The translations under genes were made by a program, and so were the position numbers. A stretch of DNA of 64,000 bases from an alpha proteobacterium SCGC AAA536-G10 (lineage in GTDB: Bacteria; Pseudomonadota; Alphaproteobacteria; Puniceispirillales; Marisalimonadaceae): contig CAJJBL010000022.1 of assembly GCA_905182395.1 (NCBI GenBank), positions 281-64,280 on the forward strand, written 5' to 3'. The notes under the pieces are model-generated. The model was not told the DNA's origin. It worked only from the letters and a program-made list of their open reading frames with translations, and made no database searches. Positions 2,566 to 63,865 of the stretch are shown piece by piece; the first letter of the stretch is position 1; the number at the start of each line of letters is the position of its first letter.

Positions 2566-3630
2566 TTAGTATTTCACGCCTTGCTTTAAATAAGCTTTGC
2601 TAGACCAAATTTGGTAATCGTCTCTAAAAGCATTATAGCTAGCAGTAATTTCTTTAAACAAAGGATCTGAAGCAGATTTTTCTTCTACAACTTCATCCCA
2701 AGCTTTTTTAAACTTAGAAATTTCTGAATCAGGCCAGGTAACAAATGTTACGCCCTTACTTTCAAGTTCACGCATAGCTGGAACTTGTTTAGCATCAGAT
2801 CTAACAAGAGCCCACCAAGCAGTGGATTCACATGCTGTAGAAATAACACTTTTTTGTGTTTTTGTTAAACCATTCCAAGCTTTCTTATTTAACAATAACT
2901 CTCCAATTGATGTCTGCTGATGCCATCCAGGGAAATAGTTAAATTTAGCTAATTGGTAGAAACCATAACTTAAGTCATGAGTAGGCATTGAAAATTCAGT
3001 TGCATCAATAACACCTTTTTCAAGAGCTGGATAAATATCTCCACCAGCTAAAAGCTGTGTTGAAACACCAAGCTTACTCATTACCATTGCACCAAGTCCA
3101 AAGAAACGCATCTTCATTCCTTTTAACTCTTCAACATTGTTGATTTTCTTACGAAACCAACCTGAAGTTTCAGGAGCATGCACTAAACAGTTAAGAGGTT
3201 TAAGGCCATATTCACCATAAATTCTATCTTTTAACTGATTTCCGCCGCCATATTCCATCCAACCAACATACTCACTTGCACCTGGACCAAAAGGAACAGC
3301 TGTAAAATATGAAACTGCAGGAATTTTTCCAGCATGATAACCAGGTGTTGTATAACCTGCATCTACTGCACCATTCTTAACAGCATCCCAAACTTCTAAT
3401 GAAGGTACAAGAGCGTTTGGCTCATGGAACCTTAATTGCACATCACCACCTGAGATTTCTTTTACTTTATTTGAAAAGTAAACAGCTGCTTCACCATTAA
3501 TGGCAACTTGGCTTCCCCAAGTACTTTGCATCTTCCAACGTAATTTCTCAGCTGCGTTTACTGATACCGCCATAAGACTAGTTGTAGCAATAGCTACAGC
3601 GCCTATAAATAGGCTAGATTTGAATTTCAT
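2566..3630 (-). CDS. dctP: TRAP transporter periplasmic solute-binding protein, DctP family
   Basis: 354 aa with signal peptide (MKFKSSLFIGAVAIATTSLMAVSVNA). Length and sequence are typical of DctP-type SBPs; operon context with dctQ and dctM. Confidence 0.85.
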   Translation of the reverse strand: MKFKSSLFIGAVAIATTSLMAVSVNAAEKLRWKMQSTWGSQVAINGEAAVYFSNKVKEISGGDVQLRFHEPNALVPSLEVWDAVKNGAVDAGYTTPGYHAGKIPAVSYFTAVPFGPGASEYVGWMEYGGGNQLKDRIYGEYGLKPLNCLVHAPETSGWFRKKINNVEELKGMKMRFFGLGAMVMSKLGVSTQLLAGGDIYPALEKGVIDATEFSMPTHDLSYGFYQLAKFNYFPGWHQQTSIGELLLNKKAWNGLTKTQKSVISTACESTAWWALVRSDAKQVPAMRELESKGVTFVTWPDSEISKFKKAWDEVVEEKSASDPLFKEITASYNAFRDDYQIWSSKAYLKQGVKY

Positions 3631-41035: not shown

Positions 41036-41112
41036 GCGCTCGTAGCTCAGCTGGATAGAGCACTAGACTACGAATCTAGGGGTCAGGAGTTCGAATCTTC
41101 TCGAGCGCACCA
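41036..41112 (+). tRNA. tRNA-Arg (anticodon ACG)
   Basis: 77-nt cloverleaf folded by hand: acceptor GCGCTCG/CGAGCGC, D-arm GCTC/GAGC, anticodon arm CTAGA-CTACGAA-TCTAG, T-arm AGGAG-TTCGAAT-CTTCT, encoded CCA. Confidence 0.92.
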
Positions 41113-41215
41113 TTTTTTTAATTTAATATCAATAAGTTAGAAAAATAGAAACTTAACTCACCTCAGTAAATACTCAGTTTTGTCATAGATTTGACTCAAT
41201 AAAACGAGTCGAATC

Positions 41216-42200
41216 ATGGGATGCATGAGAAAAAGAGGTAAATCTTGGAATGCTCAAGTAAGAGTATCTGGTTGGAGAACTTTTACTAAATCATTTAAAA
41301 CAAAATTAAGTGCTACAGAATGGGTTGCGAATTTTGAAAAAGAACTTCGTTCTAAACCTATTCCAAAGAAAGATATTAAAAATTTAAAGTTAAAAAATTT
41401 ATTTAATAAATATAAATTAGAAATTCTTCCTAAGTTAAAAAGTTATAAAATCGTTTCTTATAAATTAATAAATTTGTCTAGATTATGGTTAGGAGATATT
41501 GTTGTTATAAATTTAACAAAAAGATATTTAGAACAGTTTTGTGAAGACAGAAAATTAAAGGTTCAAGAAGGCACTGTTAAATCCGAATTGATGCTAATTA
41601 AAAGAATTTTTAAAATTGCAATTGATAAATGGAATTATGGAATACCTTTTGATGCCTTTAGTGGACATGAAATTCCTTCCTCTCACAAACCAAGAAATCG
41701 AAGAGCATCTAAAGAAAAATCAACAACTCTTATATTCAATACAGAAAAACAAAAAAACAAATACATCTCCATTATCATTCAGTTTGCTGTTGAAACTAGT
41801 ATGAGAAGATCAAAGATACTTAAACTAACTTGGAACTATATAAACTTAGAGACTAGAATTGCCTCTCTGTATGACAATAAGAATGGAGATGATGGACACA
41901 TTCCATTAACTAAAACTGCTATAAAATTATTATCTGATCTTACTCAGTCATCTGAGTTTGTATTTCCAATATCTGCTAATTGTTTAAGACTTGCATGGGA
42001 GAGATGTAGATATAAATCCAATATCAAAGGATTAAGATTCCACGATTTAAGACATGAGGCAGTTTCAAAATTTTTTTGAAATGGGATTATCTGTTCCAGA
42101 GGTTGCATTGATATCTGGTCACAAAGAAGTAAGTCAATTATTTAGATATACTCATTTAAAACCAGAGAATTTGATTGCTAAATATTCAACTATTTTTTAA
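41216..42200 (+). pseudogene. tyrosine recombinase / phage-type integrase, frameshifted before the catalytic Tyr segment
   Basis: N-terminus MRKRGKSWNAQVRVSGW; catalytic R (ETSMRRSKILKLTW) and HDLRH. The ORF stops at 42079 inside a T7 run (42071-42077). The +1 frame continues EMGLSVPEVALISGHKEVSQLFRYTHLKPE..., carrying the GH and the nucleophilic Tyr, to the stop at 42198-42200. Confidence 0.8.
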
Positions 42201-45420: not shown

Positions 45421-45702
45421 ATGGAAAAAAAACTTTCTAGTGTTCAAAAAAAAGCATTACGAAAAAAAGGATACTCACTAAAACCTGTTGTCATGATCGG
45501 TCAGCACGGTCTTACAGATGCTGTTCTTGCTGAGATTGATACCGCTCTCAATGCTCATGAACTGATTAAAGTTCGTATCAGAGGAGCAGATAAAAATAAA
45601 CGAACTGAGCAATTTACAAAAATTGAACACCAGTTGAATGCCGAGGTAGTGCATCAAATTGGTGGGATTACTGTCTTGTACCGACCTACAACCGCTCTTT
45701 AA
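45421..45702 (+). CDS. yhbY: YhbY/CRM-domain RNA-binding protein
   Basis: LSSVQKKALRKKGYSLKPVVMIGQHGLTDAVLAEIDTALNAHELIKVRI...VLYRP parallels E. coli YhbY. Visibly G+C-richer than its neighbours. Confidence 0.8.
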   Translation: MEKKLSSVQKKALRKKGYSLKPVVMIGQHGLTDAVLAEIDTALNAHELIKVRIRGADKNKRTEQFTKIEHQLNAEVVHQIGGITVLYRPTTAL

Positions 45703-45706
45703 AAAA

Positions 45707-45777
45707 CAATGATATCCAAAGAAAAATATCAATTACTCTTTACCTTTAATAATCATTTCGATTAAACTATGAGTATG
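45707..45777 (+). repeat. junction element copy 1 (A-part truncated, B-part complete)
   Basis: ..ATGATATCCAAAGAAAAATATCAATTACTCTTTACC-18 nt-TAAACT-ATGAGT-ATG. -35-like 45739-45744, -10-like 45763-45768, ATG 45775. Confidence 0.8.
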
Positions 45778-46251
45778 AAAAAATTATTCGTTATATTATC
45801 ATTTTTAATTTCAATCACCTGTCTGTCATCACAAAGTTGGGCATTGAAAGAAAAATGGTTTCCCACAGATAAACCAAATTGCCTTGTTTGGAATTCAGAT
45901 CCTCAACCAGAAGAAACTGTTAAGTGGTCAGGAGAATGTTTGAATGGAAAAGTCAATGGTATCGGCACTTTATCATGGTCAATTGGAGATCAGTATATAG
46001 GTGAATACAAAAATGGTAACATGAATGGACAAGGGACTTATAGTTGGCAAAAGGGAGACCAATACACAGGTGAGTGGAAAAATAATCATATATATGGACA
46101 AGGTACTTTTACTTTTGTAAATGGAGATAAATTTGAAGGTGAATGGAAAGATGATCTGATGCATGGACAAGGAACTTATACTTTTGTAAATGGTAAAAAA
46201 ATAGAAGGTATATGGGAAAATGGAAAAAAAGTAGAAGTGACTAAAACCTAA
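45769..46251 (+). CDS. secreted MORN-repeat protein
   Basis: Signal peptide MKKLFVILSFLISITCLSSQSWA (from ATG 45775). About 5 tandem YxGEWKNGxxxGxG MORN repeats. Confidence 0.75.
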   Translation: MSMKKLFVILSFLISITCLSSQSWALKEKWFPTDKPNCLVWNSDPQPEETVKWSGECLNGKVNGIGTLSWSIGDQYIGEYKNGNMNGQGTYSWQKGDQYTGEWKNNHIYGQGTFTFVNGDKFEGEWKDDLMHGQGTYTFVNGKKIEGIWENGKKVEVTKT

Positions 46252-46304
46252 TCTATAAACTAAGATATTATCTAATCAATTAATCCTAAGAGTTAAAAAC
46301 TTGA

Positions 46305-46700
46305 ATGCCTAACACTTCAGAAGATATAGTCTATAAACACCATAACGCAATTAATACTCAAGATGAACGAGAATATCTCGATAGCGTAAAGTTTCCTTTT
46401 ACCTATCAGAATTATAATGGTGTTTCTATCACAATTAAAGATGAAGAAGACTATAGAACTAATTATCAAATGCCATGGGATATAATAAAGGATACTGAAT
46501 CAAACTGGTCCCATACGGAAATGGATAAAATTGAAGAAGTGGCACGTTCCAATTCGTCTGTGGTTTTTAAACTTTTAATGAGAAGAATAAATAAATCAGG
46601 CAATACAGATCTCATTATTCAAGTGATTTGGATTGCTGTCTCTACACAAGGGAAATGGGGTATCCAATTTAGGCATAACCTTGGTATTCCTACCCCTTAA
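46305..46700 (+). CDS. hypothetical protein
   Basis: 131-aa ORF filling the cassette. No recognised family. Confidence 0.4.
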   Translation: MPNTSEDIVYKHHNAINTQDEREYLDSVKFPFTYQNYNGVSITIKDEEDYRTNYQMPWDIIKDTESNWSHTEMDKIEEVARSNSSVVFKLLMRRINKSGNTDLIIQVIWIAVSTQGKWGIQFRHNLGIPTP

Positions 46701-46711
46701 AATGGAAATAC

Positions 46712-46750
46712 AAAAACTAATCTGTAAACCATGATAGTATCCAGAGAAAA
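46712..46750 (+). repeat. junction element copy 2 (A-part; B-part degenerate up to about 46797)
   Basis: AAAAACTAATCTGTAAACCATGATAGTATCCAGAGAAAA, 12 nt after the upstream stop. Confidence 0.75.
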
Positions 46751-46860
46751 CCATTAATTATTTTTTAACAATAATAACTACTCTAATTAAACTTAGATAT
46801 ATTTATAATTAACAAGTATCAACAGCAATATCATCTCAGTTTTTAAAATAAGGATATAGT

Positions 46861-47211
46861 ATGTCTTTTTTTATTATAAAGATTTTTATAACTGCAATAT
46901 TAATTGTATCAATAAGTGAAATTGCAAAATTTAATGACCGATTAGGTGGAATTATTGGTGCAATGCCTATAACAACATTTTTAATTTTATTTTGGTTGTA
47001 TTATGAAAATAGTTCTTTAGAAAAAATTTCTAATCATATGTCATATACTTTGTTATATGTCATACCAACATTGCCAATGTTTATAACTTTTCCTTACTTC
47101 ATAAATAAATTTGGATTTTATATATCAATAATTCTAAGTATTATATTAACAATTTTATTTGTAATTATAGTACATATTATTTCTAAGAAATTTGGATATA
47201 AATTAATATAA
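46861..47211 (+). CDS. hypothetical 4-TM membrane protein
   Basis: 116 aa, strongly hydrophobic. Confidence 0.45.
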   Translation: MSFFIIKIFITAILIVSISEIAKFNDRLGGIIGAMPITTFLILFWLYYENSSLEKISNHMSYTLLYVIPTLPMFITFPYFINKFGFYISIILSIILTILFVIIVHIISKKFGYKLI

Positions 47212-47255
47212 TAAGATTACTAACAATTTTGCTAAAAAGATGATATGGAGTAAAA

Positions 47256-47498
47256 TTATTTATTTTTAGAAATTTTTAATTCTTTTTTAATTTTTTCTTC
47301 TAAATGTCCTATCATTATTCTTCTCATATACTCTGCTCTTGCTAAATCAGTAAAAGAGTATTCTCTTATATCCTCATTACTAATTCTAATAGAAAAGTTA
47401 TAAAAAGCACCACTCTTTTTTATAGTTGAAGCACTGCCAGAAGCGATTTTATTAGGACTTACAAGTGCGCCAAATTTAGTTTCAATTATATTTGTCAT
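47256..47498 (-). CDS. hypothetical 80-aa protein, paralogue A (second copy at 56138-56374)
   Basis: About 66 of the first 75 residues are identical to the 56138 ORF by hand alignment. Strong GAGGAG Shine-Dalgarno 7 nt upstream of the ATG on the minus strand. Confidence 0.6.
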   Translation of the reverse strand: MTNIIETKFGALVSPNKIASGSASTIKKSGAFYNFSIRISNEDIREYSFTDLARAEYMRRIMIGHLEEKIKKELKISKNK

Positions 47499-47570
47499 AA
47501 AATTATCTCCTCACAACATTTCTATATATTATAATATCAAATAATAAATTTAATCAATGTTTATAATATT

Positions 47571-47984
47571 TTAAAAATTAATCGTTTCTATAAGTAATTG
47601 AATTGAAAAAACTACGAGACTTAAATAAGTAAATAACATTCCAGAAATTCTTAAAAAAGGATTTGATTGGTAAAACGCAAAACAAATTGCATGTGCCAAT
47701 CTTCCATATGAGAAAACTAGACTAATTACTAATAGATAGTTAAAAGAAGATTTTCCTGTAATTTCTAAAATCAATAAAAGGATCAAGAAAATGGGAGTGT
47801 ATTCAGAAAAGTTTCCGTGTGCTCTAACATTTCTTTGTAACTTTTCCTCTGATATTTCTTTGTCCATTTTAAAAAGTAGTTTCATAACAGGACTACCCCT
47901 TAAATACCCAATACGAAATGATAAAAACAAATAAAATAAAGTAAAAATTGATGCAAAAATTGGAGTTAATGTAAGAGTGTTCAC
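47571..47984 (-). CDS. MAPEG-family membrane protein
   Basis: 137 aa, 4 TM helices; RAHGNFSEYTPIFL and GRLAH motifs typical of MAPEG/YecN. Confidence 0.65.
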   Translation of the reverse strand: MNTLTLTPIFASIFTLFYLFLSFRIGYLRGSPVMKLLFKMDKEISEEKLQRNVRAHGNFSEYTPIFLILLLILEITGKSSFNYLLVISLVFSYGRLAHAICFAFYQSNPFLRISGMLFTYLSLVVFSIQLLIETINF

Positions 47985-48063
47985 TATTTATCTAACTAAT
48001 TAAAATTTAATTTTAATACTTTCTTTATCTCAAAATATTATACATTTACAAAGAAGCGTAGTC

Positions 48064-48148
48064 AAAACCTAATATATAAACAACAATAGTATCTGATGAG
48101 AAATATCAATTACTCTTTAACTTTTATTTTGATTAAACTATGAGTACA
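48064..48148 (+). repeat. junction element copy 3 (full; 6-nt deletion in the promoter spacer; ATG decayed to ACA)
   Basis: AAAACCTAATATATAAACAACAATAGTATCTGATGAGAAATATCAATTACTCTTTAAC-12 nt-TAAACT-ATGAGT-ACA. Confidence 0.75.
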
Positions 48149-48219
48149 AATTTTATTTTTAACTATTCATTGCTATGGTTTTTAAAGTTTTTTAAATTCT
48201 TGCTAATTAAAGAAAGAAG

Positions 48220-48600
48220 TTGAATATATTGATTGCTGATATTGTATTAATATTTCATTTTGGCATTGTTATTTTCATAACATTTGGTTTATTTTTAATA
48301 CCAATTGGTTACAAATTTGGTTGGATTTGGATTAAAAATTTAAAATTAAGAATATGTCATTGTGGAATGATTATTTTTATTACTTTAGAAACGTTATTGG
48401 GAATTACTTGCCCACTGACTTCTATAGAAAATAATTTACGTGGAATTAATATGTCTACGTCATTTATATCTTATTGGATTAATCAAATTATTTATTGGAA
48501 TTTCCCGACCCAATTTTTTATCATTTTATATTCTATTATATTAGTATGGACTTTATTGATGTGGAAACTCTTTCCACCTATGATTAAAAATAGTGTTTAA
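48220..48600 (+). CDS. DUF2784-like membrane protein
   Basis: ADIVLIFHFGIVIFITFG...GITCPLTSIENNLRG resembles the DUF2784 pattern (..CPLT.LE..LR). TTG start. Confidence 0.5.
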   Translation: MNILIADIVLIFHFGIVIFITFGLFLIPIGYKFGWIWIKNLKLRICHCGMIIFITLETLLGITCPLTSIENNLRGINMSTSFISYWINQIIYWNFPTQFFIILYSIILVWTLLMWKLFPPMIKNSV

Positions 48601-48627
48601 AACCTCACTATCATAAAATGATAAGTA

Positions 48628-48717
48628 AAGACTAATCTATAAATTTAATAAGCATCATTAGATGAATTTCAATTACACTTTACCTTTTTAAACTATTTTG
48701 ATTAGACTATGTATATG
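48628..48717 (+). repeat. junction element copy 4 (full)
   Basis: AAAGACTAATCTATAAA...TTTCAATTACACTTTACC-18 nt-TAGACT-ATGTAT-ATG. -35-like 48679-48684, -10-like 48703-48708, ATG 48715. Confidence 0.8.
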
Positions 48718-49614
48718 AAAAATAAAGATTGGATATTAGTGATTTTACTTGGTCTCTTTTGGGGATCAAGTTTCTTTTTTGTTGAGATGCTTTTAAAGTA
48801 TCTAAGTCCCTTTATGATCGTTTATCTTAGAGTGTCAATTGCATCTATTTTTTTAATTGTGTTTATAATCATTCGAGGTACTAAATTTAAACTATCACTC
48901 AAAAACCTTTTTAATCTTTTTATAATGAGTTTATTGAATAACATTTTTCCTTTTCTTCTTATAACTTTTGGTCAACAAACTACGACAGGCGGTTTAGCAT
49001 CAATTTTAAATGCAAACACATCTTTTATTGGAATACTTTTAGCATCATTATTTTTACCTCTAGAGCGACTAAATTTTTATAGATTAATAGGAGTTTCAAT
49101 TGGAGTTTTAGGAGTAATAATCGCTATTGGTTATCAAAATATTATTCAATTAAATGATGATGATTTAGGTAAATATTTAATTTTAATTGCCACCCTTTCA
49201 TATGGTTTTGCAGGAGTATGGGGAAAATTAAAACTACAAAATTTTACTCCTATTATCGCTGCCACAGGTATGTTAACAATGAGCACTATAATTCTTACTC
49301 CATACGCTTTTACAATGCACTTAGAAGAAATATATTCTTTAAACTTTTTTATTCTTAAATATGCATTTGTTTTTGCAATAATTTGCTCGGTATTTGCTTA
49401 TTTTTTATATTTTAAAATACTTGAAAGTGCAGGAGCAGGAAATCTATTAATTTGTACTATAATTATTCCTCCTTCATCAATCTTCCTAAATGCTTTTATA
49501 TTAGATCAAATTATTACTTTTAATGAATGTTTGGGATTAATAATCATTATATTAGGTCTAATTATATTAGATGGTCGCTTAATAAACAAACATACCCCCA
49601 CCTCCCAAAAATGA
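48715..49614 (+). CDS. EamA/DMT-family transporter
   Basis: About 10 TM helices, two EamA halves. Start taken at the element-borne ATG 48715 (ORF track: 48709). Confidence 0.75.
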   Translation: MKNKDWILVILLGLFWGSSFFFVEMLLKYLSPFMIVYLRVSIASIFLIVFIIIRGTKFKLSLKNLFNLFIMSLLNNIFPFLLITFGQQTTTGGLASILNANTSFIGILLASLFLPLERLNFYRLIGVSIGVLGVIIAIGYQNIIQLNDDDLGKYLILIATLSYGFAGVWGKLKLQNFTPIIAATGMLTMSTIILTPYAFTMHLEEIYSLNFFILKYAFVFAIICSVFAYFLYFKILESAGAGNLLICTIIIPPSSIFLNAFILDQIITFNECLGLIIIILGLIILDGRLINKHTPTSQK

Positions 49615-49615
49615 C

Positions 49616-49659
49616 AAAAAAACTCAACCTATAAAATACGATAGTATCCAGAGATAAAT
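49616..49659 (+). repeat. junction element copy 5 (A-part only)
   Basis: AAAAAACTCAACCTATAAAATACGATAGTATCCAGAGATAAAT begins 2 nt after the EamA stop, then diverges into unrelated, G+C-richer sequence. Confidence 0.75.
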
Positions 49660-49810
49660 TTTCTAAGTGGGAAGGGTTCTATTCGCGCTATTTATCTTCT
49701 TATTCTTTATATTATTAAATCAATTGAAGTATTAATTAATTTTAAATATTATTTTCTGTATATAAGAATAGAGAATTAAGATAAATAAAATATAAATTAT
49801 TGGATAGAGC

Positions 49811-50257
49811 ATGGATAAACAAAACTTATTTGACAAATATGGTGGTGTACCAACTATTAAAGCGATATTAGAAAAATTTTATAAAGATTTATTAAGTCTT
49901 AGATGGACAAGAAAAATGTTTGTAAATGTTAATATGGATAAACTTATATTACATCAAATTCAATTTGTTAGTTTTGCCATGGGTAAACCAGAAAGTGAAT
50001 TTGATGATAAAAGATTAAGAGAAGGTCATGCAGGTCTGGGAATAACGGAAGCACAATTCTAAGAAACAGTTGGTATACTAGTAAAAGTTCTTACAGACTT
50101 CAAAGTTAAGTTTGATGACGTCAAAACTATAGGTGATGCTATAAACACTAAGAAACATTTAATAGTAAATGTCCCAGGAATTAAAAAATCAGCCAAAAAA
50201 GTATTAAAAAAATTAAGAGAAAAAGAAAAATACAATAATACAAAACTTATTTTATAG
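49811..50257 (+). pseudogene. group I truncated haemoglobin (trHbN-like) with in-frame TAA
   Basis: LFDKYGGVPTIKAILEKFYKDLL...HQIQFVSFAMG...LREGHAGLGITEAQF-TAA(50060-50062)-ETVGILVKVLTDFKV... The globin fold continues in the same frame after the stop, down to TAG at 50255-50257. Confidence 0.7.
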
Positions 50258-50271
50258 TTAATCTTATTTGT

Positions 50272-50455
50272 AGAACTGCCAGTAAGTATTAATCATCCAA
50301 TATCAACTAAAGATGTAACTTCAAAATGTTTCTTAGATATGTTGTCAGTCTTTTCAGAGTTTGAAACTAATTTAAGAAAAGAAAGACAGATGGAAGGCAT
50401 TACAAAAGAATTGGATATTGGTCGTGCAAATGTTTATCCTGCATTGGAGGTTTAA
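50272..50455 (+). pseudogene. serine recombinase (resolvase/invertase) remnant
   Basis: ..INHPISTKDVTSKCFLDMLSVFSEFETNLRKERQMEGITK-ELDIGRANVYPALEV*. This is the end of the catalytic domain and E-helix fused to the last helix of the HTH. No N-terminal catalytic Ser region. Confidence 0.6.
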
Positions 50456-50709
50456 TATTAAAAGAGTAGGTAATGATTGCACATCTGTCTATCATTCATA
50501 GTAGTGTTAAATTCTAAAATAATGGAAAAGAAATGCATAAAACAATAAAAATAATTATCGGTACCGTTCTCATCATATACATTGTTCTGGTTGTTATGCA
50601 GTTAACAGGAATAAGTTTATTTTAAGAAGTAATAGTTACTAATTAATATAAACCAGAAGTGTTAAAATTAAGAAATTATTAATCCCCTACTGCTTAAAAC
50701 TGACAACTA

Positions 50710-50799
50710 GAAACTAATCTATAAATCACGATATTATCTAGAAAGAAATATCAATTACTCTTTACCTTTAATATGTATTTTGATTAAACTTTGACAATG
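50710..50799 (+). repeat. junction element copy 6 (full)
   Basis: GAAACTAATCTATAAATCACGATATTATCTAGAAAGAAATATCAATTACTCTTTACC-18 nt-TAAACT-TTGACA-ATG. The ATG at 50797 opens only a 13-codon ORF. Confidence 0.8.
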
Positions 50800-51020
50800 A
50801 CAAAATATCTTAAAAATAACCTCAGTTTAGTTATATAATTTCACCCAACTTAATATAACAATTTGAAACAAGAGAATTTTACATACAAATCTAGGAAAAA
50901 AGTTTGATAGAAATGTTCTAAAGATGATGAATTATCTAAAGAAATTTTTAAAAGGTTAAAAAGAAACTATTGGGAAAAAGTAGATTTAGATAGAGAAGTT
51001 CATAAGTATATAAAATAATT

Positions 51021-51536
51021 ATGTTTAGGAAAGGTTTAGACACTATGGGAATGATGAGAAGTAGATACATACCACATTGTTGTTTTGTATATTTGACTGA
51101 AGAATTAAAATATCTAACCACAATAACTAAATGTGATGAGGAATGGATTAGAAATGATATGGAAAATGTAGAAGAATTTAAAAGAAGAATTGAAAGTGGC
51201 GAAATGTTTGAAGATGAAATACACCCATATGAAATAAGTCAAAAAGGAGATGATTTTTACCTTTATGAATGTGAACCAATTAAAAATGAAAGGTATAAAG
51301 AATTACTACAAAAGTATGGAAAATTAGAAGAATACATTAATGAAGAAAAACCTATTGATGTATTTTTTGGAATTGGAGAAGGTAGAATCTATGTTGAAGA
51401 GGGTAAGTTTAATACCAAAGAAGAAGGAGGGTCACATATCTATGATGAAAATGGTTATGGAACAGAAAATCCAAAATATAGATTTACAAAATTAAAAAAA
51501 ACGGAAAAATTATTTAGAAAAGTTAGATTAGGTTAA
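51021..51536 (+). CDS. hypothetical acidic protein
   Basis: 171-aa ORF. No recognised family. Confidence 0.4.
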   Translation: MFRKGLDTMGMMRSRYIPHCCFVYLTEELKYLTTITKCDEEWIRNDMENVEEFKRRIESGEMFEDEIHPYEISQKGDDFYLYECEPIKNERYKELLQKYGKLEEYINEEKPIDVFFGIGEGRIYVEEGKFNTKEEGGSHIYDENGYGTENPKYRFTKLKKTEKLFRKVRLG

Positions 51537-51537
51537 A

Positions 51538-51587
51538 CAAAAACCTAATCTATAAACCACGATAGTATCCAGAGAGAAATATTAATC
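51538..51587 (+). repeat. junction element copy 7 (A-part only), last element before the island 1 right end
   Basis: CAAAAACCTAATCTATAAACCACGATAGTATCCAGAGAGAAATATTAATCA, directly after the stop at 51534-51536. Confidence 0.8.
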
Positions 51588-51700
51588 ATACACCAATTAA
51601 ATGCCCTCAGATTGTCACACAGATTTGACACAGTAAGGCAATAAAAGGTACTATTATTCAATAATAAATCTTTAAGAAAATAAGGGTTTAAAGGGGTCAA

Positions 51701-51762
51701 CTGGATAGAAAACTAGACTACGAATCTAGAAGGAAGGAGTTAGAATTTTCTCTAACGCACCA
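51701..51762 (+). pseudogene. degenerate partial copy of tRNA-Arg (att direct repeat; D-loop to CCA)
   Basis: CTGGATAGAAAACTAGACTACGAATCTAGAAGGAAGGAGTTAGAATTTTCTCTAACGCACCA versus tRNA 41051-41112: 52/62 identical by hand alignment. The 5' acceptor half is missing and the T-arm and acceptor pairings are broken. Confidence 0.8.
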
Positions 51763-51849
51763 TTTCTGATTATTTTTTTACAAAACTAAATCTTCAATTT
51801 AGAACTTTATTTGATATGTCTTTAAGAACAGATTATTTTAAAGGAATAT

Positions 51850-52006
51850 AATGAGATGGTCATGATTAGTTTTTATTTTACTTTTAGGAATTATTCTTTG
51901 TTTAATTATAATAAATTATAATCAAGAAATAGTTCAATTCTTAATTGTATCTGATAATATAGATTCGTTAATCAACTATCTACAGAGTTTTAAAGAAACC
52001 AAATGA
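51850..52006 (+). CDS. small single-TM protein (paralogue of 42551-42694)
   Basis: MRWSWLVFILLLGIILCLIIINYNQEIVQFLIVSDNIDSLINYLQSFKETK. Same ATGA stop/start overlap with the next ORF as in island 1. Confidence 0.45.
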
Positions 52007-54253: not shown

Positions 54254-54340
54254 CAAAAATCTAATCTAACAATCACGATAGTTTCCAAAATTAAACATCA
54301 ATCTTATCTTTACCTCTTACAACTATTTTAATTAAAAAAC
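54254..54340 (+). repeat. junction element copy 8 (full, diverged)
   Basis: CAAAAATCTAATCTAACAATCACGATAGTTTCCAAAATT...ATCTTTACC-18 nt-TAAAAA. -35-like 54309-54314. Confidence 0.7.
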
Positions 54341-55401: not shown

Positions 55402-55560
55402 ATTGAAATCTACTGAATTTATTATCTACTACTATAAAGTTTTTTAGAAAGTTATTTATTTAATCAGATAGAAAAATAACAGAATAATAATCAATAGTAA
55501 CGAAAAATTTATCCAAACATAGCGCTAAATCGTAATACTAATTTCTTCAAAAATGATAAT

Positions 55561-55652
55561 CAAAATCTAATTAGAGATAAACATTGTTTCTAGACTTAAA
55601 TATTAATCTTATCTTTACCTTTCTCAATCATTTTGATTAAACTATGAGTATT
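55561..55652 (+). repeat. junction element copy 9 (A-part diverged, B-part complete, ATG decayed to ATT)
   Basis: CAAAATCTAATTAGAGATAAACATTGTTTCTAGAC...ATCTTTACC-18 nt-TAAACT-ATGAGT-ATT. -35-like 55614-55619, -10-like 55638-55643. Confidence 0.75.
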
Positions 55653-55702
55653 AAAAAAAGTATAAGTTGAATATCTATTTTCGCGCTTTGGAGAATTATA
55701 TT

Positions 55703-56493: not shown

Positions 56494-56547
56494 TGATAAT
56501 ATTACTTGTTTACCTTACGCAACTATTTTGATTAGACTGTTAATATG
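56494..56547 (+). repeat. junction element copy 10 (B-part only)
   Basis: ..GATAATATTACTTGTTTACC-18 nt-TAGACT-GTTAAT-ATG. -35-like 56509-56514, -10-like 56533-56538. The ATG at 56545 is the ORF start. Confidence 0.75.
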
Positions 56548-56817
56548 TTAATCTTAATCAAAGAGCTCTCTAAAAATGAATATGAAATTATAGTTAACTC
56601 GGACACTTCAACTAAACATATTGTTACTTTAACAGATATAGTTTATCAAAAATTTACTAATGAAAAGATTACTAAAAAGGAACTTTTGGACTTTAGTTTT
56701 AAATTTCTATTAGAAAGAGAACCTAACACTTCAATCCTTTCTTTTTTTGAATTAAAAATCATTACAAGATATTTTCCTGAATATGAAGTGAGCATTAAAA
56801 AATGGTGTGGGTTTTGA
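56545..56817 (+). CDS. hypothetical protein
   Basis: 90-aa ORF beginning at the element-borne ATG. Confidence 0.45.
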   Translation: MLILIKELSKNEYEIIVNSDTSTKHIVTLTDIVYQKFTNEKITKKELLDFSFKFLLEREPNTSILSFFELKIITRYFPEYEVSIKKWCGF

Positions 56818-57043
56818 AATAAATTTAATATGATCAAAGCAGTTAAATATGATAGAAAACTAGAGTTTGATTTAACTGTTTATAGTACATTGAAGGATGA
56901 ACTTATGAATGATGATGATAAAAAAAATTGGTGGTACTGGGTAGCAACGTATGCATGTATCTCATTAGTATTATTTGGTATTTTTTCTATTTATGTAACT
57001 ATCAATTAAAAATTAATAAAAATATATCTCCTTCAAAGTAGAT

Positions 57044-57135
57044 AACTAAGTTTCATTCTGTAAATGACGATAGTATTAAAAATTAAGTACCAAACACTCT
57101 ATCTTCTCGATCTATTTCAATTAATTTAAAACTAT
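57044..57135 (+). repeat. junction element copy 11 (strongly degenerate)
   Basis: ..AACTAAGTTTCATTCTGTAAATGACGATAGTATTAAAAATTAAGTACCAAACACTCTATC... retains the CGATAGTAT core and ACTCT. Confidence 0.45.
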
Positions 57136-57638: not shown

Positions 57639-57690
57639 ATAAAAAGAATTAATTAACTAAACATTTACTTACTAAGTATTGTTCTTTTAA

Positions 57691-57748
57691 AGAAAAGTAT
57701 CAATTATCCTTTGCCTACCATAATCATTTTGATTAAACTGTGATTATA
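57691..57748 (+). repeat. junction element copy 12 (B-part only)
   Basis: AGAAAAGTATCAATTATCCTTTGCC-18 nt-TAAACT-GTGATT-ATA. -35-like 57710-57715, -10-like 57734-57739. Confidence 0.7.
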
Positions 57749-57781
57749 AAAAACTAGTTTTTAGAATATTAAGATTATTTA

Positions 57782-58712: not shown

Positions 58713-58910
58713 ATGAGCAATTGGAAAACAGATTTTGAAGTTAAGTTCCATTTACACTTTGAACATCATAATGGAAGACAAGAAAAAAAATATAATTCTT
58801 TAATTGTAGAAGCAGAATCTGAAGAAAAAGCAAAAGAAATAGTTTTTTATCAATATGAAAATAGTAGTTTTTTAGTAATTGATGAAGTTAAAAAATTATG
58901 GAAATACTGA
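58713..58910 (+). CDS. hypothetical protein
   Basis: 65-aa ORF. Its stop is immediately followed by junction element copy 13. Confidence 0.35.
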   Translation: MSNWKTDFEVKFHLHFEHHNGRQEKKYNSLIVEAESEEKAKEIVFYQYENSSFLVIDEVKKLWKY

Positions 58911-58986
58911 TTTATAAATCCTAATAGTATCTATGGTGCAATATCAATTTCTCTTTAGCTTATATTATTTTGGTTAAACTTTAATA
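58911..58986 (+). repeat. junction element copy 13 (full but diverged; 15-nt promoter spacer)
   Basis: TTTATAAATCCTAATAGTATCTATGGTGCAATATCAATTTCTCTTTAGC-15 nt-TAAACT. Confidence 0.65.
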
Positions 58987-59015
58987 AGTTTATTTATAAT
59001 ATTTTATTGATTTTA

Positions 59016-59561
59016 CTAATTTGAACGAATACCCCATTTCTGATATTTTATAAGCGCATCACTACAAAATTGAAATGAAAGATTTCTAATAAGATGCAAA
59101 GGTGAACCTCCCCTACCTTTTCTGGATTCTCCTTGAGAAACTGTCAGGCATAATTTTTTATTTTCAATCAGACTGACACTACCATTACTCAAAAATATAA
59201 ATTTCTGAGCATCTCCTAAATTACAATTCTTTAAAGATAAACTTCCGGGCATGACAACGGATAAAACTTCCATACAGACGTTGAATCCAGAAAGAAAAAA
59301 CTCATTATTCATTATTCTTTTTCTATCAAAACTTTGATCTATTGCGATACTTCCTTCATACGAATAACAGGTATGAGCCTGAACCCCTCTATTAGTTTTT
59401 GCTCGTGATTTATAACCTTTTATATCAATACAATAACCTCTTTGGTCATCAATTTGATTGATCAGGTAAACTTCTACTAATTCACCAACAGTTTCACTTC
59501 TTACAATATTTGGTAAAATAAATATCAAAGCGGTTAATAATATGAGTAAGTTTTTTTTCAT
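59016..59561 (-). CDS. hypothetical secreted Cys-containing protein
   Basis: Signal peptide MKKNLLILLTALIFILPNIVRSE and several Cys pairs. No confident family. Confidence 0.45.
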   Translation of the reverse strand: MKKNLLILLTALIFILPNIVRSETVGELVEVYLINQIDDQRGYCIDIKGYKSRAKTNRGVQAHTCYSYEGSIAIDQSFDRKRIMNNEFFLSGFNVCMEVLSVVMPGSLSLKNCNLGDAQKFIFLSNGSVSLIENKKLCLTVSQGESRKGRGGSPLHLIRNLSFQFCSDALIKYQKWGIRSN

Positions 59562-59838
59562 TATTCATTCTCTCTCAAATGATTTTTTCTAATGTATAAG
59601 AGGTTTACTAAAGGTGCTAATAACCAAAGTATTGCCGAACCCCATAAGATTAAACTTTCTGGAAAACTATGACTAATGAAGTATCCAAAAAATAATAATA
59701 TAAGAAGGACATTTAGTACGATTGTAATATTCTTTAAAGTAATATTAATATCCTATTACAATTTTTATACAAACTACCTCACAATCAAAATCTGATAAAC
59801 TTTTATTTGAACCTATTTAGTAAAATATTAGAATAAAA

Positions 59839-60390
59839 CTATGAAAAGTTTACTGATACAATTAAAGATGAATTGTTATTAATAGGACTGTTGACATCTT
59901 TACTAACACGATGAAAGTTGATGTTATTATTTGCATTACTATTGAGTATATCTTCACCATCTAGATAACGAGATATTTCAATATCTTCTAATAAGACTGG
60001 TTGTCGATGATGAATATGATTGATCGCATCTATTGAACTGCGAGTAAGTATCAGACAACCAATTTCATTATAAAGACCTGCAAAAATATGTGATGAACAA
60101 TAGTGATAGTAAGGAATTTTTTCTTTATCTTTTCTTTGCCATTCATACCAGCCATTATGAAATATTACACATCGTTTAGTATTCCTAAAGGAAGTTTTCT
60201 CATACATTGTTTCAGAACGACAGTTTATAAGATTCATGTTTTTCTTCCAGGAGGGTGCATATGACCATTTCATCAAACATACATTATCTTTAGTTTTAAC
60301 CGGAATCAATTGTGAAGGTGCCACGTTATACGATGACTCATACTTAAGACCAAACATATCGTTAGAGGAAATTACAAACCGACCACACAT
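59839..60390 (-). CDS. SOS-response-associated peptidase (SRAP/YedK, HMCES-like abasic-site sensor)
   Basis: MCGRF N-terminus (the catalytic Cys2 requires a start at the Met at 60390, not 60408); YNVAPSQ, WYEW and HHRQPV motifs. Confidence 0.8.
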   Translation of the reverse strand: MCGRFVISSNDMFGLKYESSYNVAPSQLIPVKTKDNVCLMKWSYAPSWKKNMNLINCRSETMYEKTSFRNTKRCVIFHNGWYEWQRKDKEKIPYYHYCSSHIFAGLYNEIGCLILTRSSIDAINHIHHRQPVLLEDIEISRYLDGEDILNSNANNNINFHRVSKDVNSPINNNSSLIVSVNFS

Positions 60391-60427
60391 AACAATATAA
60401 TAACTCACTCCCCTTAAAACAGATAGA

Positions 60428-60519
60428 TAAAAACTAATCTATAAATGCAATAAGTATCAAGAGCAATATATCAATTACTCTTAACCTTTCTAATCTATTT
60501 TGATTACACTATAAGTATG
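60428..60519 (+). repeat. junction element copy 14 (full) lying between two minus-strand genes
   Basis: TAAAAACTAATCTATAAATGCAATAAGTATCAAGAGCAATATATCAATTACTCTTAACC-18 nt-TACACT-ATAAGT-ATG. The ATG at 60517 opens only a 23-codon ORF antisense to the 3' end of the 560-aa gene. Confidence 0.8.
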
Positions 60520-60531
60520 AAGAAACCTTTT

Positions 60532-63232: not shown

Positions 63233-63865
63233 ATGAAACTGATAATTGCCACCCCTAGTCCATTCGCTCGAAAAGCAAGAGTAGCTTTGCTTGAAAAGAA
63301 AATAGATTTTGAAGAAATTGTAGATGTTCCTTGGAATCAAAACACATTAACTAAGGGTATAAATCCCCTAGGAAAGATACCAGTTCTTATTCAAGATAAT
63401 CATGAGCCTTTATTCGACAGTAAATTAATCGTCCAATACTTAGATTGCTATAAACCACACCCTCTAATGTATCCTGAAAATCCTGAGGAAAATATCTCAG
63501 CACGGTTAATTGAAACTGTTGCGGATGGGGTATGCGATGCAATAGTTCTAGTATTTCTTGAAAATGCAAGAAAAGAGATGTTAAGGAGCAAAGACTGGAT
63601 TAAAAGACAAGAGAGAAAAATATTTGAAGGTGTAAAATATCTTTCTTATCATCTTAAAGGCAAAAATTATTTTGTAGGAAGCTCTTTTAATATTGCAGAT
63701 ATCTGTGGATATTCCTGTTTAGAATATATAGATCTTAGATTTCCTAAGTTTGAATGGAGAAGTGATTTTCCAAATTTAGAAAAATATTGGATTTTTCATA
63801 AAGATAGGCAATCATTGAAAAAAACAAAGCCAATAGCTCAGATCATAGAACCTTTAGAAGATTAA
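63233..63865 (+). CDS. glutathione S-transferase family protein
   Basis: 210 aa. N-terminal thioredoxin-like domain (SPFARKARVALLEKKIDFE...GKIPVL) and a helical C-terminal domain. Confidence 0.8.
   Translation: MKLIIATPSPFARKARVALLEKKIDFEEIVDVPWNQNTLTKGINPLGKIPVLIQDNHEPLFDSKLIVQYLDCYKPHPLMYPENPEENISARLIETVADGVCDAIVLVFLENARKEMLRSKDWIKRQERKIFEGVKYLSYHLKGKNYFVGSSFNIADICGYSCLEYIDLRFPKFEWRSDFPNLEKYWIFHKDRQSLKKTKPIAQIIEPLED

Follow-up and report, generated by a model that had tools for sequence, protein, structure and literature searches.

Scattered exchange points in a modular junction repeat between gene cassettes of a tRNA-linked island

The DNA analyzed here is a 64,000-nt stretch (the window) of contig C22 from an alpha proteobacterium, SCGC AAA536-G10, which is part of a 1.43-Mb metagenome-assembled genome with 30% GC. 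It contains a tRNA-linked island (island 1), adjoined downstream by a second island, and between the gene cassettes sits a repeat of about 110 bases that we refer to as the junction element. A first-pass annotation had proposed that half-copies of this element break at one internal point, the boundary between a 5′ A-part and a 3′ B-part, as expected for a crossover site. We found that the junction repeat is where gene order changes and that it consists of separable modules, with exchange points that scatter along it, and these results favor cassette shuffling driven by short stretches of portable homology over shuffling by an integron-like enzyme. Levibacteraceae is the name given to the low-GC SAR116 family (PMC12421898). 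Members of this family are abundant marine bacteria with streamlined genomes, and the behavior of the element bears on how single genes are gained and lost in their flexible islands.

Copy coordinates were obtained with nhmmer, using a profile hidden Markov model that was seeded with eight full window copies and iterated to 113 positions; positions within the element are model positions throughout. The features of island 1 and the element copies are given below in window coordinates, with strand in brackets; G003 is a genome of the same genus (~93% identical), and att denotes attachment.

41036-41112 (+): tRNA-Arg(ACG), left att site of island 1 (ARAGORN; Rfam, 66 bits)
41127-41139 (+): TATCAATAAGTTA, fitting the IHF consensus WATCARNNNNTTR; AATATCAAT is common to this motif and the A/B joint of the element (the O motif)
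41216-42200 (+): tyrosine integrase, split in two open reading frames (ORFs; 41216-42079 and 42054-42200; ORF list; PF00589, E = 7.6e-15)
45681-45785 (+): first element of array 1, A-part 5′-truncated (from ~33) and B complete, overlapping the stop codon of a YhbY-like gene (nhmmer 6-110, E = 9e-19)
46237-46281 (+): short A-type copy with an internal deletion, ending near 59-62 (nhmmer 6-59)
46704-46798 (+): full-length element with a point-mutated B-part (nhmmer 4-98, E = 1.7e-14; the G003 ortholog L031_15485 has an intact B)
48057-48149 (+): full element, left repeat of a 2.6-kb block absent from G003 (nhmmer, G003 comparison)
48618-48722 (+): full element with a divergent A-core, 5′ of the EamA cassette (nhmmer)
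49619-49674 (+): A-part with a decayed remnant of a palindromic insert (TCTAAGTGGGAAGG) and no canonical B (nhmmer 12-54, 49619-49661)
50270-50460 (+): serine recombinase (resolvase) remnant with an internal deletion (PF00239; longer version in L066)
50699-50805 (+): full element, bounding the 2.6-kb indel on the right; identity to the one G003 element, 94% (nhmmer, G003 comparison)
51536-51588 (+): terminal A-only copy, abutting the right att arm (nhmmer 8-60)
51589-51696 (+): right att arm, consisting of AATTAAATGCCCTCAG, then TGTCACACAGATTTGACACAG, then a spacer (sequence; arm alignment across loci)
51697-51765 (+): attR of island 1, a degraded copy of the tRNA-Arg 3′ end (repeat D12, direct; identity to 41047-41115, 84%)
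54255-54336 (+): array 2 junction element (nhmmer 11-91)
55553-55659 (+): full-length junction element (nhmmer)
56501-56550 (+): B-only copy, from ~57 (nhmmer 57-105)
57005-57124 (+): degenerate element (nhmmer 18-90)
57688-57753 (+): B-only copy, from ~42-44 (nhmmer 42-107)
58898-58987 (+): junction element, left repeat of a 1.4-kb indel relative to G003 (nhmmer, G003 comparison)
60420-60526 (+): junction element, right repeat of the 1.4-kb indel, with minus-strand genes on either side (nhmmer, ORF list)

In the tRNA-Arg islands of Levibacteraceae, the junction element is a composite intergenic module in which four parts, designated Z, A-core, O and B, follow one another from 5′ to 3′. Its consensus, in blocks of ten, reads AACTGATAAC CAAAACCTAA TCTATAAACC ACGATAGTAT CCAGAGAGAA ATATCAATTA CTCTTTACCT TTAATAATTA TTTTGATTAA ACTATGATTA TG. 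The Z module, a C-rich box together with TAAAACTGACAAC, was seen upstream of the A-core in many copies and resembles the CCCTCAG..TGACACAG motif of the island att arms. The motif C[CT]TCA-N3-6-TGA[CT]A was present in 31/87 element copies; the window genome as a whole has just four instances of the strict form, CCTCA-N3-6-TGACA, which both att arms carry (CCCTCAG, a short spacer, then TTGACACAG twice). The A-core, of about 45 nt (CAAAACCTAATCTATAAACCACGATAGTATCCAGAGAGAAATATC), is almost invariant across species. The O module, ATCAATTAC, is an IHF-like half-site that also opens both att arms, and on the strength of this motif IHF may bind there; ATATCAATTAC at the joint recurs 15 nt after tRNA-Arg in the left ends and at the start of the right arm. 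A-core and O are followed by one of three alternative right-hand partners, namely B, the right arm, or Z, and B is a promoter-like −35/−10 block reaching as far as the start codon (ATG) of the following gene. In L202, L211, L213, L231 and L228, A-core and O lead directly into a Z-like box (ACACCCTACCCCCTAAAACTGACAAAG) and then into unique DNA; these junctions resemble an empty cassette and parallel the terminal layout, where A-core and O run into the right att arm.

The two ends of the element are in register with the neighboring genes. Stop codons occur in all three frames of Z/A (TGA at 4, TAA at 18 and 25, TAG at 35), and a plus-strand ORF of at least 60 codons ends there in 73/154 copies, in line with the earlier proposal that the A-part closes the upstream unit. 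At the other end, B finishes on a start codon, in complete copies that open an ORF there, in 63/142 copies, with the ATG at position 94 or 100 in 59 of these 63. The hexamers TTTACC and, after 17–18 nt, TTAAAC/TAAACT precede the ATG, and from this arrangement B is a putative sigma-70-type promoter of the downstream gene, whose transcript would start, leaderless, on the ATG. A simple promoter scan did not call the B-part (8/12 consensus positions), and a simple terminator scan found terminators to be no more frequent than chance. Searches against Rfam gave no match overlapping any copy at the gathering score, nor at E ≤ 1 within 45500-52000.

We found no sign of an attC-like fold or of a dif-like palindrome in the element. 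For an attC-like fold, the consensus and a window copy performed no better than shuffles on either strand (z −0.9 to −0.02). By inspection, no RYYYAAC/GTTRRRY boxes were seen in the element, no dif-like site (two 11-bp inverted arms with a 6-bp spacer) was present in the 113-nt consensus, and only 10/18 positions around the joint were symmetric. Conservation of the A-core was independent of an upstream plus-strand ORF end (0.85 vs. 0.88, p = 0.87) and of a following B-part (0.86 vs. 0.88), so the A-core is not simply the terminator of the upstream gene or an upstream promoter element. Two other ideas on the A-core were rejected. Derivation from a tRNA or att copy by decay found no support, as the element aligned locally with the att regions no better than shuffles did; for a partner acting in trans, the rest of the genome offered only chance matches of 12–17 nt inside coding regions. 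An 11-bp perfect inverted repeat lies at 51524-51552 (TAGATTAGGTT, 7 nt, AACCTAATCTA; fold z = −4.5), formed by the last codons of the gene at 51021-51536 and the start of the A-core, and has one mismatch in G002 (L003).

Within the window genome, every significant nhmmer match lies on C22 and on the plus strand, and relatives carry the same element in arrays adjoining tRNA-Arg(ACG) or tRNA-Arg(TCG). All copies share a single strand in the window and in 25/26 related loci. The exception is L045, where copies at 3485-3577 (+) and 15143-15037 (−) lie 11.5 kb apart and may represent two oppositely oriented islands. When 192 genomes of the order were searched for the 61-nt A-part, it occurred in 3/3 members of the window's genus (g1), 31/45 of genus g2 (Candidatus Levibacter) and 1/14 of a third genus (g3), and in 0/126 genomes of the order's other families. 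The A-part and A-core are often 95–100% identical across species and genera, with flanking core DNA between the two genera ~74–77% identical. The A-core was not found in viral contigs, and a scan of genome contigs with the 17-mer AGAGAAATATCAATTAC was set aside as it returned mostly chance matches in unrelated phyla. The array was collinear with the window at ≥99.4% identity in ~14 metagenome contigs from several samples, and is thus stable within the population, with slow turnover.

In the first-pass annotation, three window copies were described as keeping only the A-part. This stood for the terminal copy at 51538, which is the last element before the right att region; the copy at 49616 lacks a canonical B but is a decayed member of a subfamily with a 20-nt insert, and the third, at 46712, turned out to be full-length (4-98) with a mutated B. 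The 15-mer GATAGTATCCAGAGA has exactly three occurrences in the window, at 46733, 49640 and 51561. The terminal layout of A-only copy and att arm is conserved in other genomes (L031, L034, L042, L046, L047) and metagenome contigs. DNA past 49659 had been taken for unrelated; in our comparisons the match to a subfamily of elements with a 20-nt insert continues to 49674 (49596-49674 against L046 10427-10506, 81% identity by blastn). The two copies described as B-only, near 56494 and 57691, do exist and cover 57-105 and 42-107. Boundaries in the window thus fall at ~52-54, 58-60, 57 and 42-44, a spread of 18 nt that does not agree with one internal breakpoint.

The insert that defines this subfamily is the 20-nt CCAAGTTGGGAATTTTGATT, placed exactly after GAAATATC and containing the perfect palindrome TCCCAAGTTGGGA. 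Members were identified at L046 10447-10563 and L033 15441-15332 and in many metagenome loci (e.g., L189, L203, L206 and L245), with a remnant in the window at 49654-49674. The palindromic insert could be an operator for a dimeric regulator.

To sample what lies 3′ of the A-part without bias, we scanned metagenome contigs with the 22-mer from positions 33-54, which identified 92 copies in 80 contigs. These copies represented 68 distinct downstream contexts, comprising 37 with standard B, 11 with the palindromic insert at the A/B joint, ~4 with a variant −35 and ~16 that were A-only. Independent A-only ends, read by eye, were 53, 54, 55, 55, 57, 59, 60, 60, 60, 63, 63-64, 64, 64, 68, 70 and 77. 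B-only copies started at 43, 49-58, 52, 56-57 and 57, and at 61-64 in four or five cases; the last group consists of just the −35/promoter block before other genes, e.g., GST. About ten copies were 5′-truncated, starting at 21-33, and one had an internal deletion of 22-32.

Among 218 deduplicated copies from relatives and metagenomes, internal alignment ends fell at 51-65 (TATCAATTACTCT) in 37/64 cases (binomial p = 3e-7) and internal starts at 56-65 in 12/32 (p = 3e-4), with a second cluster of internal starts at 21-35 (11/32, p = 0.03). The clustering at the A/B boundary proposed earlier therefore survives the alignment of many copies as an enriched zone, but one that is ~15 nt wide, has tails and is accompanied by a second zone. 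From this, we concluded that the A/B joint is a real zone of discontinuity, and one of more than one. Many short contigs (L188-L267) end in or beside an element, and 9/92 copies are cut by a contig end; assemblers evidently break at the repeat, so short-read assemblies would under-represent array variants.

Natural recombinants allowed the exchange points to be located directly. We compared 128 full copies and retained pairs from different loci in which one 220-nt flank was ≥93% identical and the other ≤65%, mapping the mismatches of each pair in model coordinates; about a dozen recombinants were mapped. In pairs sharing the downstream flank, differences stopped after 98-100, beyond 109, 77-84, 72/73, 83-95 and 73/74, and further switches were found at 61/62, 12-62, ≤16 and ≤12. 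Pairs sharing the upstream flank first differed at 54-58, which is the end of the invariant block, and two already differed from 17 or 29. Overall, the switch points were ~12-20, 13-29, 61/62, 72/73, 73/74, 77-84, 83-95, 98-100 and beyond 109, with some switching inside the ORF. The joint is clearly passed, on its 3′ side, by at least six of the same-downstream switches, and several others map to where the A-core begins. We thus encountered no fixed strand-exchange position, with switches ranging from ~12 to beyond 109. The first-pass annotation had placed exchange at the A/B boundary and had named scatter of breakpoints beforehand as the result that would speak against it; since the switch points do scatter, the crossover is not fixed, and the single-site reading is refuted on its own terms.

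The same pairs revealed to which cassette the B module is attached. Pairs with a common downstream flank shared B (61-99) in full or in part, whereas those with a common upstream flank never did; B therefore belongs to the downstream cassette, as had been suggested when it was called the 5′ end of that cassette.

Most mapped synteny breaks lie inside an element or at its edges. G003 lacks the window blocks 48143-50711 and 58984-60429, each bounded in the window by two direct element copies, and its single element looks chimeric, switching near 20 at one of the blocks and somewhere within 28-57 at the second. Variant junctions were also found 5′ of the EamA cassette: L060 carries other cassettes there and is 99% identical to the window only from position 74 on, so that its switch (73/74) lies inside the B-part, between the −35 and −10 blocks, and L245_399 switches at 83-95. 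L317 shows no difference from the window until the 58898 element begins (~16) and then continues into unrelated DNA without an element. Cassette content thus changes in the element or at its edges, as in the G003 indels and L060, but not exactly at the A/B boundary as predicted. Some junctions lie outside elements altogether: L066 departs from the window inside the resolvase remnant, a GST variant junction falls exactly at its ATG, and modules at ~59.0-59.8 kb are rearranged in L037 and L050 without elements. L321 and G003 both lack a 70-nt segment, 57005-57074, that includes the 5′ half of a degenerate A-part; a 12-nt direct repeat, ATTAAAAATTAA, borders this indel, whose left edge lies in a TATCA/ATTA motif. 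Apparent variants in contig L057 were discarded, as they were runs of N and not real differences.

As for the GST gene itself (window 63233-63865, L033 13266-13898, L040 2052-2561; also L034 and L047), homology starts at the ATG. Upstream of it we found a full element in L040 and in the complete relative G007 (NZ_CP159808, Candidatus Levibacter sp. Uisw_134_01, genus g2, family Levibacteraceae), a B-only copy in other Levibacter genomes, and unrelated DNA in the window.

Our preferred reading, which we hold with moderate confidence, is that the element is a modular junction whose conserved blocks act as portable homology for homologous recombination, and that it is not an integron-like site. 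A-core and B are separable units, and half-copies would end within the 12–15 nt around O because the two modules meet there; this joint also accommodates insertions, e.g., the 20-nt palindrome of one subfamily. Exchange, which we infer to proceed by homologous recombination, would be mainly homology-dependent, either by RecA-mediated double crossover with incoming DNA or by unequal crossover or slippage between direct repeats, with the invariant A-core chiefly, and the −10 block secondly, providing the homology. Dedicated strand exchange at one nucleotide would then be unnecessary, and uniform conservation of ~50–60 nt is what selection for transferable homology would be expected to produce.

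Several observations weigh against this reading. Half-copy ends are enriched in one zone at the p = 3e-7 given above, and the three different right-hand partners (B and the att arms of either side) share the same opening, ATCAATTA, as would also be expected of a common recombination core. The invariance of the A-core leaves most same-upstream pairs uninformative, and a preferred crossover at O may hide among later homologous events. Homology blocks of 45–60 nt are short for RecA-dependent exchange, and the near-perfect conservation of the A-core at every position goes beyond what any demonstrated function would explain.

The recombinases encoded by the island bear on how the alternatives are to be weighed. 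An intact ortholog of the integrase (L043:5322-6302) scored 31 bits on TIGR02249, the integron integrase model, against a cut-off of 265, and its best matches were to generic Xer-like models, all far below their cut-offs; by these matches, the enzyme is classed as a generic tyrosine integrase and not IntI. The gene is broken in the window and in G003, and in the complete G007 there is no integrase between the tRNA and the array. A resolvase was considered as the recombinase of the array and rejected, as searches of the window's genus and of G007 turned up no intact one, and those present in other relatives lie away from elements. The resolvase remnant at 50270-50460 is cargo, not the array recombinase. 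Its internal deletion in the window lies between two ATTGCAAAAG repeats, and in L066 (7624-7848, 8598-8720) and L245 (~1400-1500) an A-core ending at 53/54 is fused to a remnant that encodes the 3′ helix-turn-helix part of the resolvase, making this a recurrent module.

It is unlikely, in our estimate, that the element consists of expression signals only, with A/Z as a 3′-end, insulator, terminator or regulator-binding signal and B as a promoter, and with cassettes turning over independently of the element, for example through illegitimate recombination or through integration in tandem at the tRNA. The promoter-like B ending on a start codon in 63/142 copies and the three-frame stops in Z/A fit this well, as do the 5′ part, which on inspection is C-rich and G-poor like a Rho-utilization site, and the junctions outside elements (L066; L037/L050 at ~59.0-59.8 kb; GST at its ATG). 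It leaves unexplained, however, why most mapped synteny breaks fall in the element or at its edges, why A-core conservation is independent of an upstream plus-strand gene or a following promoter, and why orientation and sequence are kept between minus-strand genes, e.g., at 58898 and 60420; moreover, 95–100% identity over ~60 nt across genera exceeds what expression signals usually need. Somewhat less probable still is an integron-like site-specific crossover in O (ATATCAATTAC), carried out by the integrase with IHF or by the host XerC/D, in which A and B would be the 3′ and 5′ halves and the scatter would come from later homologous events. Under such a crossover, one would understand the enrichment of half-copy ends at 51-65, the palindromic insert exactly after ATATC in 11/68 contexts, the presence of O at the start of both att arms with a perfect IHF consensus 15 nt after the tRNA, the CCTCA-N4-TGACA box in Z, which is like the arm-type repeats and rare in the genome, the single orientation of copies, and the contigs in which A-core and O pass directly into Z like an empty cassette. 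Yet 6 of ~10 informative same-downstream recombinants switch 3′ of 61 and several others at the 5′ edge, an overlap region of 6–8 bp would not reach the A-only ends at 63-77 or the B-only starts at 43-52, dyad symmetry around O is weak (10/18), the element aligns with the att regions no better than shuffles do, and the island enzyme is not of the IntI type, its gene being disrupted in both the window and G003 and absent next to the array of G007.

We give slightly less credence again to a previously undescribed cassette system, different from integrons, in which the integrase would bind Z (CCTCA-N4-TGACA) and IHF would bend ATCAATTAC, so that promoter-bearing cassettes would move in and out between A-core and B, with the terminal A-core, O and att arm as the empty acceptor. 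It is very improbable that the element is itself mobile, as a repeat resembling miniature inverted-repeat transposable elements that inserts between genes. The same ORFs do occur with and without the element or with a different B (GST in the window vs. G007/L040; L197_11783 vs. L200_1942), and a 6-nt inverted match, CTAATC/GATTAG, lies near its two ends; but all arrays except one have their copies in a single orientation, the element was encountered in tRNA-Arg islands alone, ~120 loci yielded neither target-site duplications nor empty sites whose flanks matched, no transposase is associated with the arrays, and where the element is absent the flanks differ on both sides.

We found no published description of the element in the literature searched, and compared it with known systems that have similar layouts. 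Integron arrays (attC sites, the super-integrons of Vibrio with their VCR repeats, and clusters of attC sites lacking integron integrases) likewise have same-orientation repeats of ~100 nt at every cassette junction, with cassettes of one or two small genes, mostly of no known function and some on the opposite strand, and they also persist without an intact integrase. They differ in that the island has neither an IntI-type integrase nor an attC hairpin on either strand, its repeat is conserved in sequence rather than structure, each junction has its own promoter-like block instead of one promoter per array, and the array lies inside a tRNA-integrated island and has scattered exchange points. 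The pdif modules of Acinetobacter plasmids, which depend on XerC/D, are similar in that short conserved sites flank small modules in different contexts; the element, however, lacks the 11-6-11 palindrome, and its copies are all direct, whereas pdif sites alternate in orientation. Correia elements of Neisseria and the repetitive extragenic palindromic (REP) and bacterial interspersed mosaic element (BIME) repeats are also conserved intergenic repeats with promoter-like content that mark rearrangement points. Unlike these, the element is confined to one island type and one orientation, has no terminal inverted repeats or target duplication, and is in register with start and stop codons.

Flexible islands at tRNA genes provide a further comparison. 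Alteromonas reportedly harbors tRNA-linked additive flexible genomic islands. With these additive islands and with tycheposons (bioRxiv 10.1101/2020.12.28.424599), the window has in common a tyrosine integrase adjoining a tRNA, tandem islands separated by partial tRNA copies, degenerate integrases and small strain-variable cassettes. The searched passages of the tycheposon preprint make no mention of a promoter-bearing conserved junction repeat between cargo genes, whereas here ~15 junction repeats partition 17 kb.

Island 1 has the layout of a tRNA-targeting island, with an integrase beside an intact tRNA and a partial tRNA direct repeat at the far end, and the same arrangement was found in L031, L042, L043, L044, L036 and L046. 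A motif fitting the IHF consensus lies at the same distance after tRNA-Arg in 6/7 island left ends displayed (L031 being the ortholog of the window), and the left ends of L043 and L044 have AATATCAATTACT here, which matches the junction core exactly. The match to WATCARNNNNTTR 15 nt after the tRNA is perfect in the window, and L042, L043, L044, L036 and L046 have it at the same distance; it is followed by CCTCAG and two direct TTGACACAG repeats just 5′ of the integrase start. This left end resembles the P′ arm of lambda attP, and as in lambda-type arms the tRNA core is followed by the IHF site 15 nt on and by the two direct TTGACACAG repeats. The junction element reuses ATCAATTAC and the CCTCA-N4-TGACA box, but its motif order differs, its IHF-like motif lacks the TTR half, and we found in it no core-type inverted repeats matching the att core.

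Backbone proteins, eight from island 1 and two from island 2, were searched against Pfam, and a family was assigned to the YhbY-like one alone. The globin-family gene at 49811-50256 has an in-frame stop that shortens its product to 83 aa in the window; in metagenome contigs of the same population (L056, L059, L064 and L065), the product is 148 aa.

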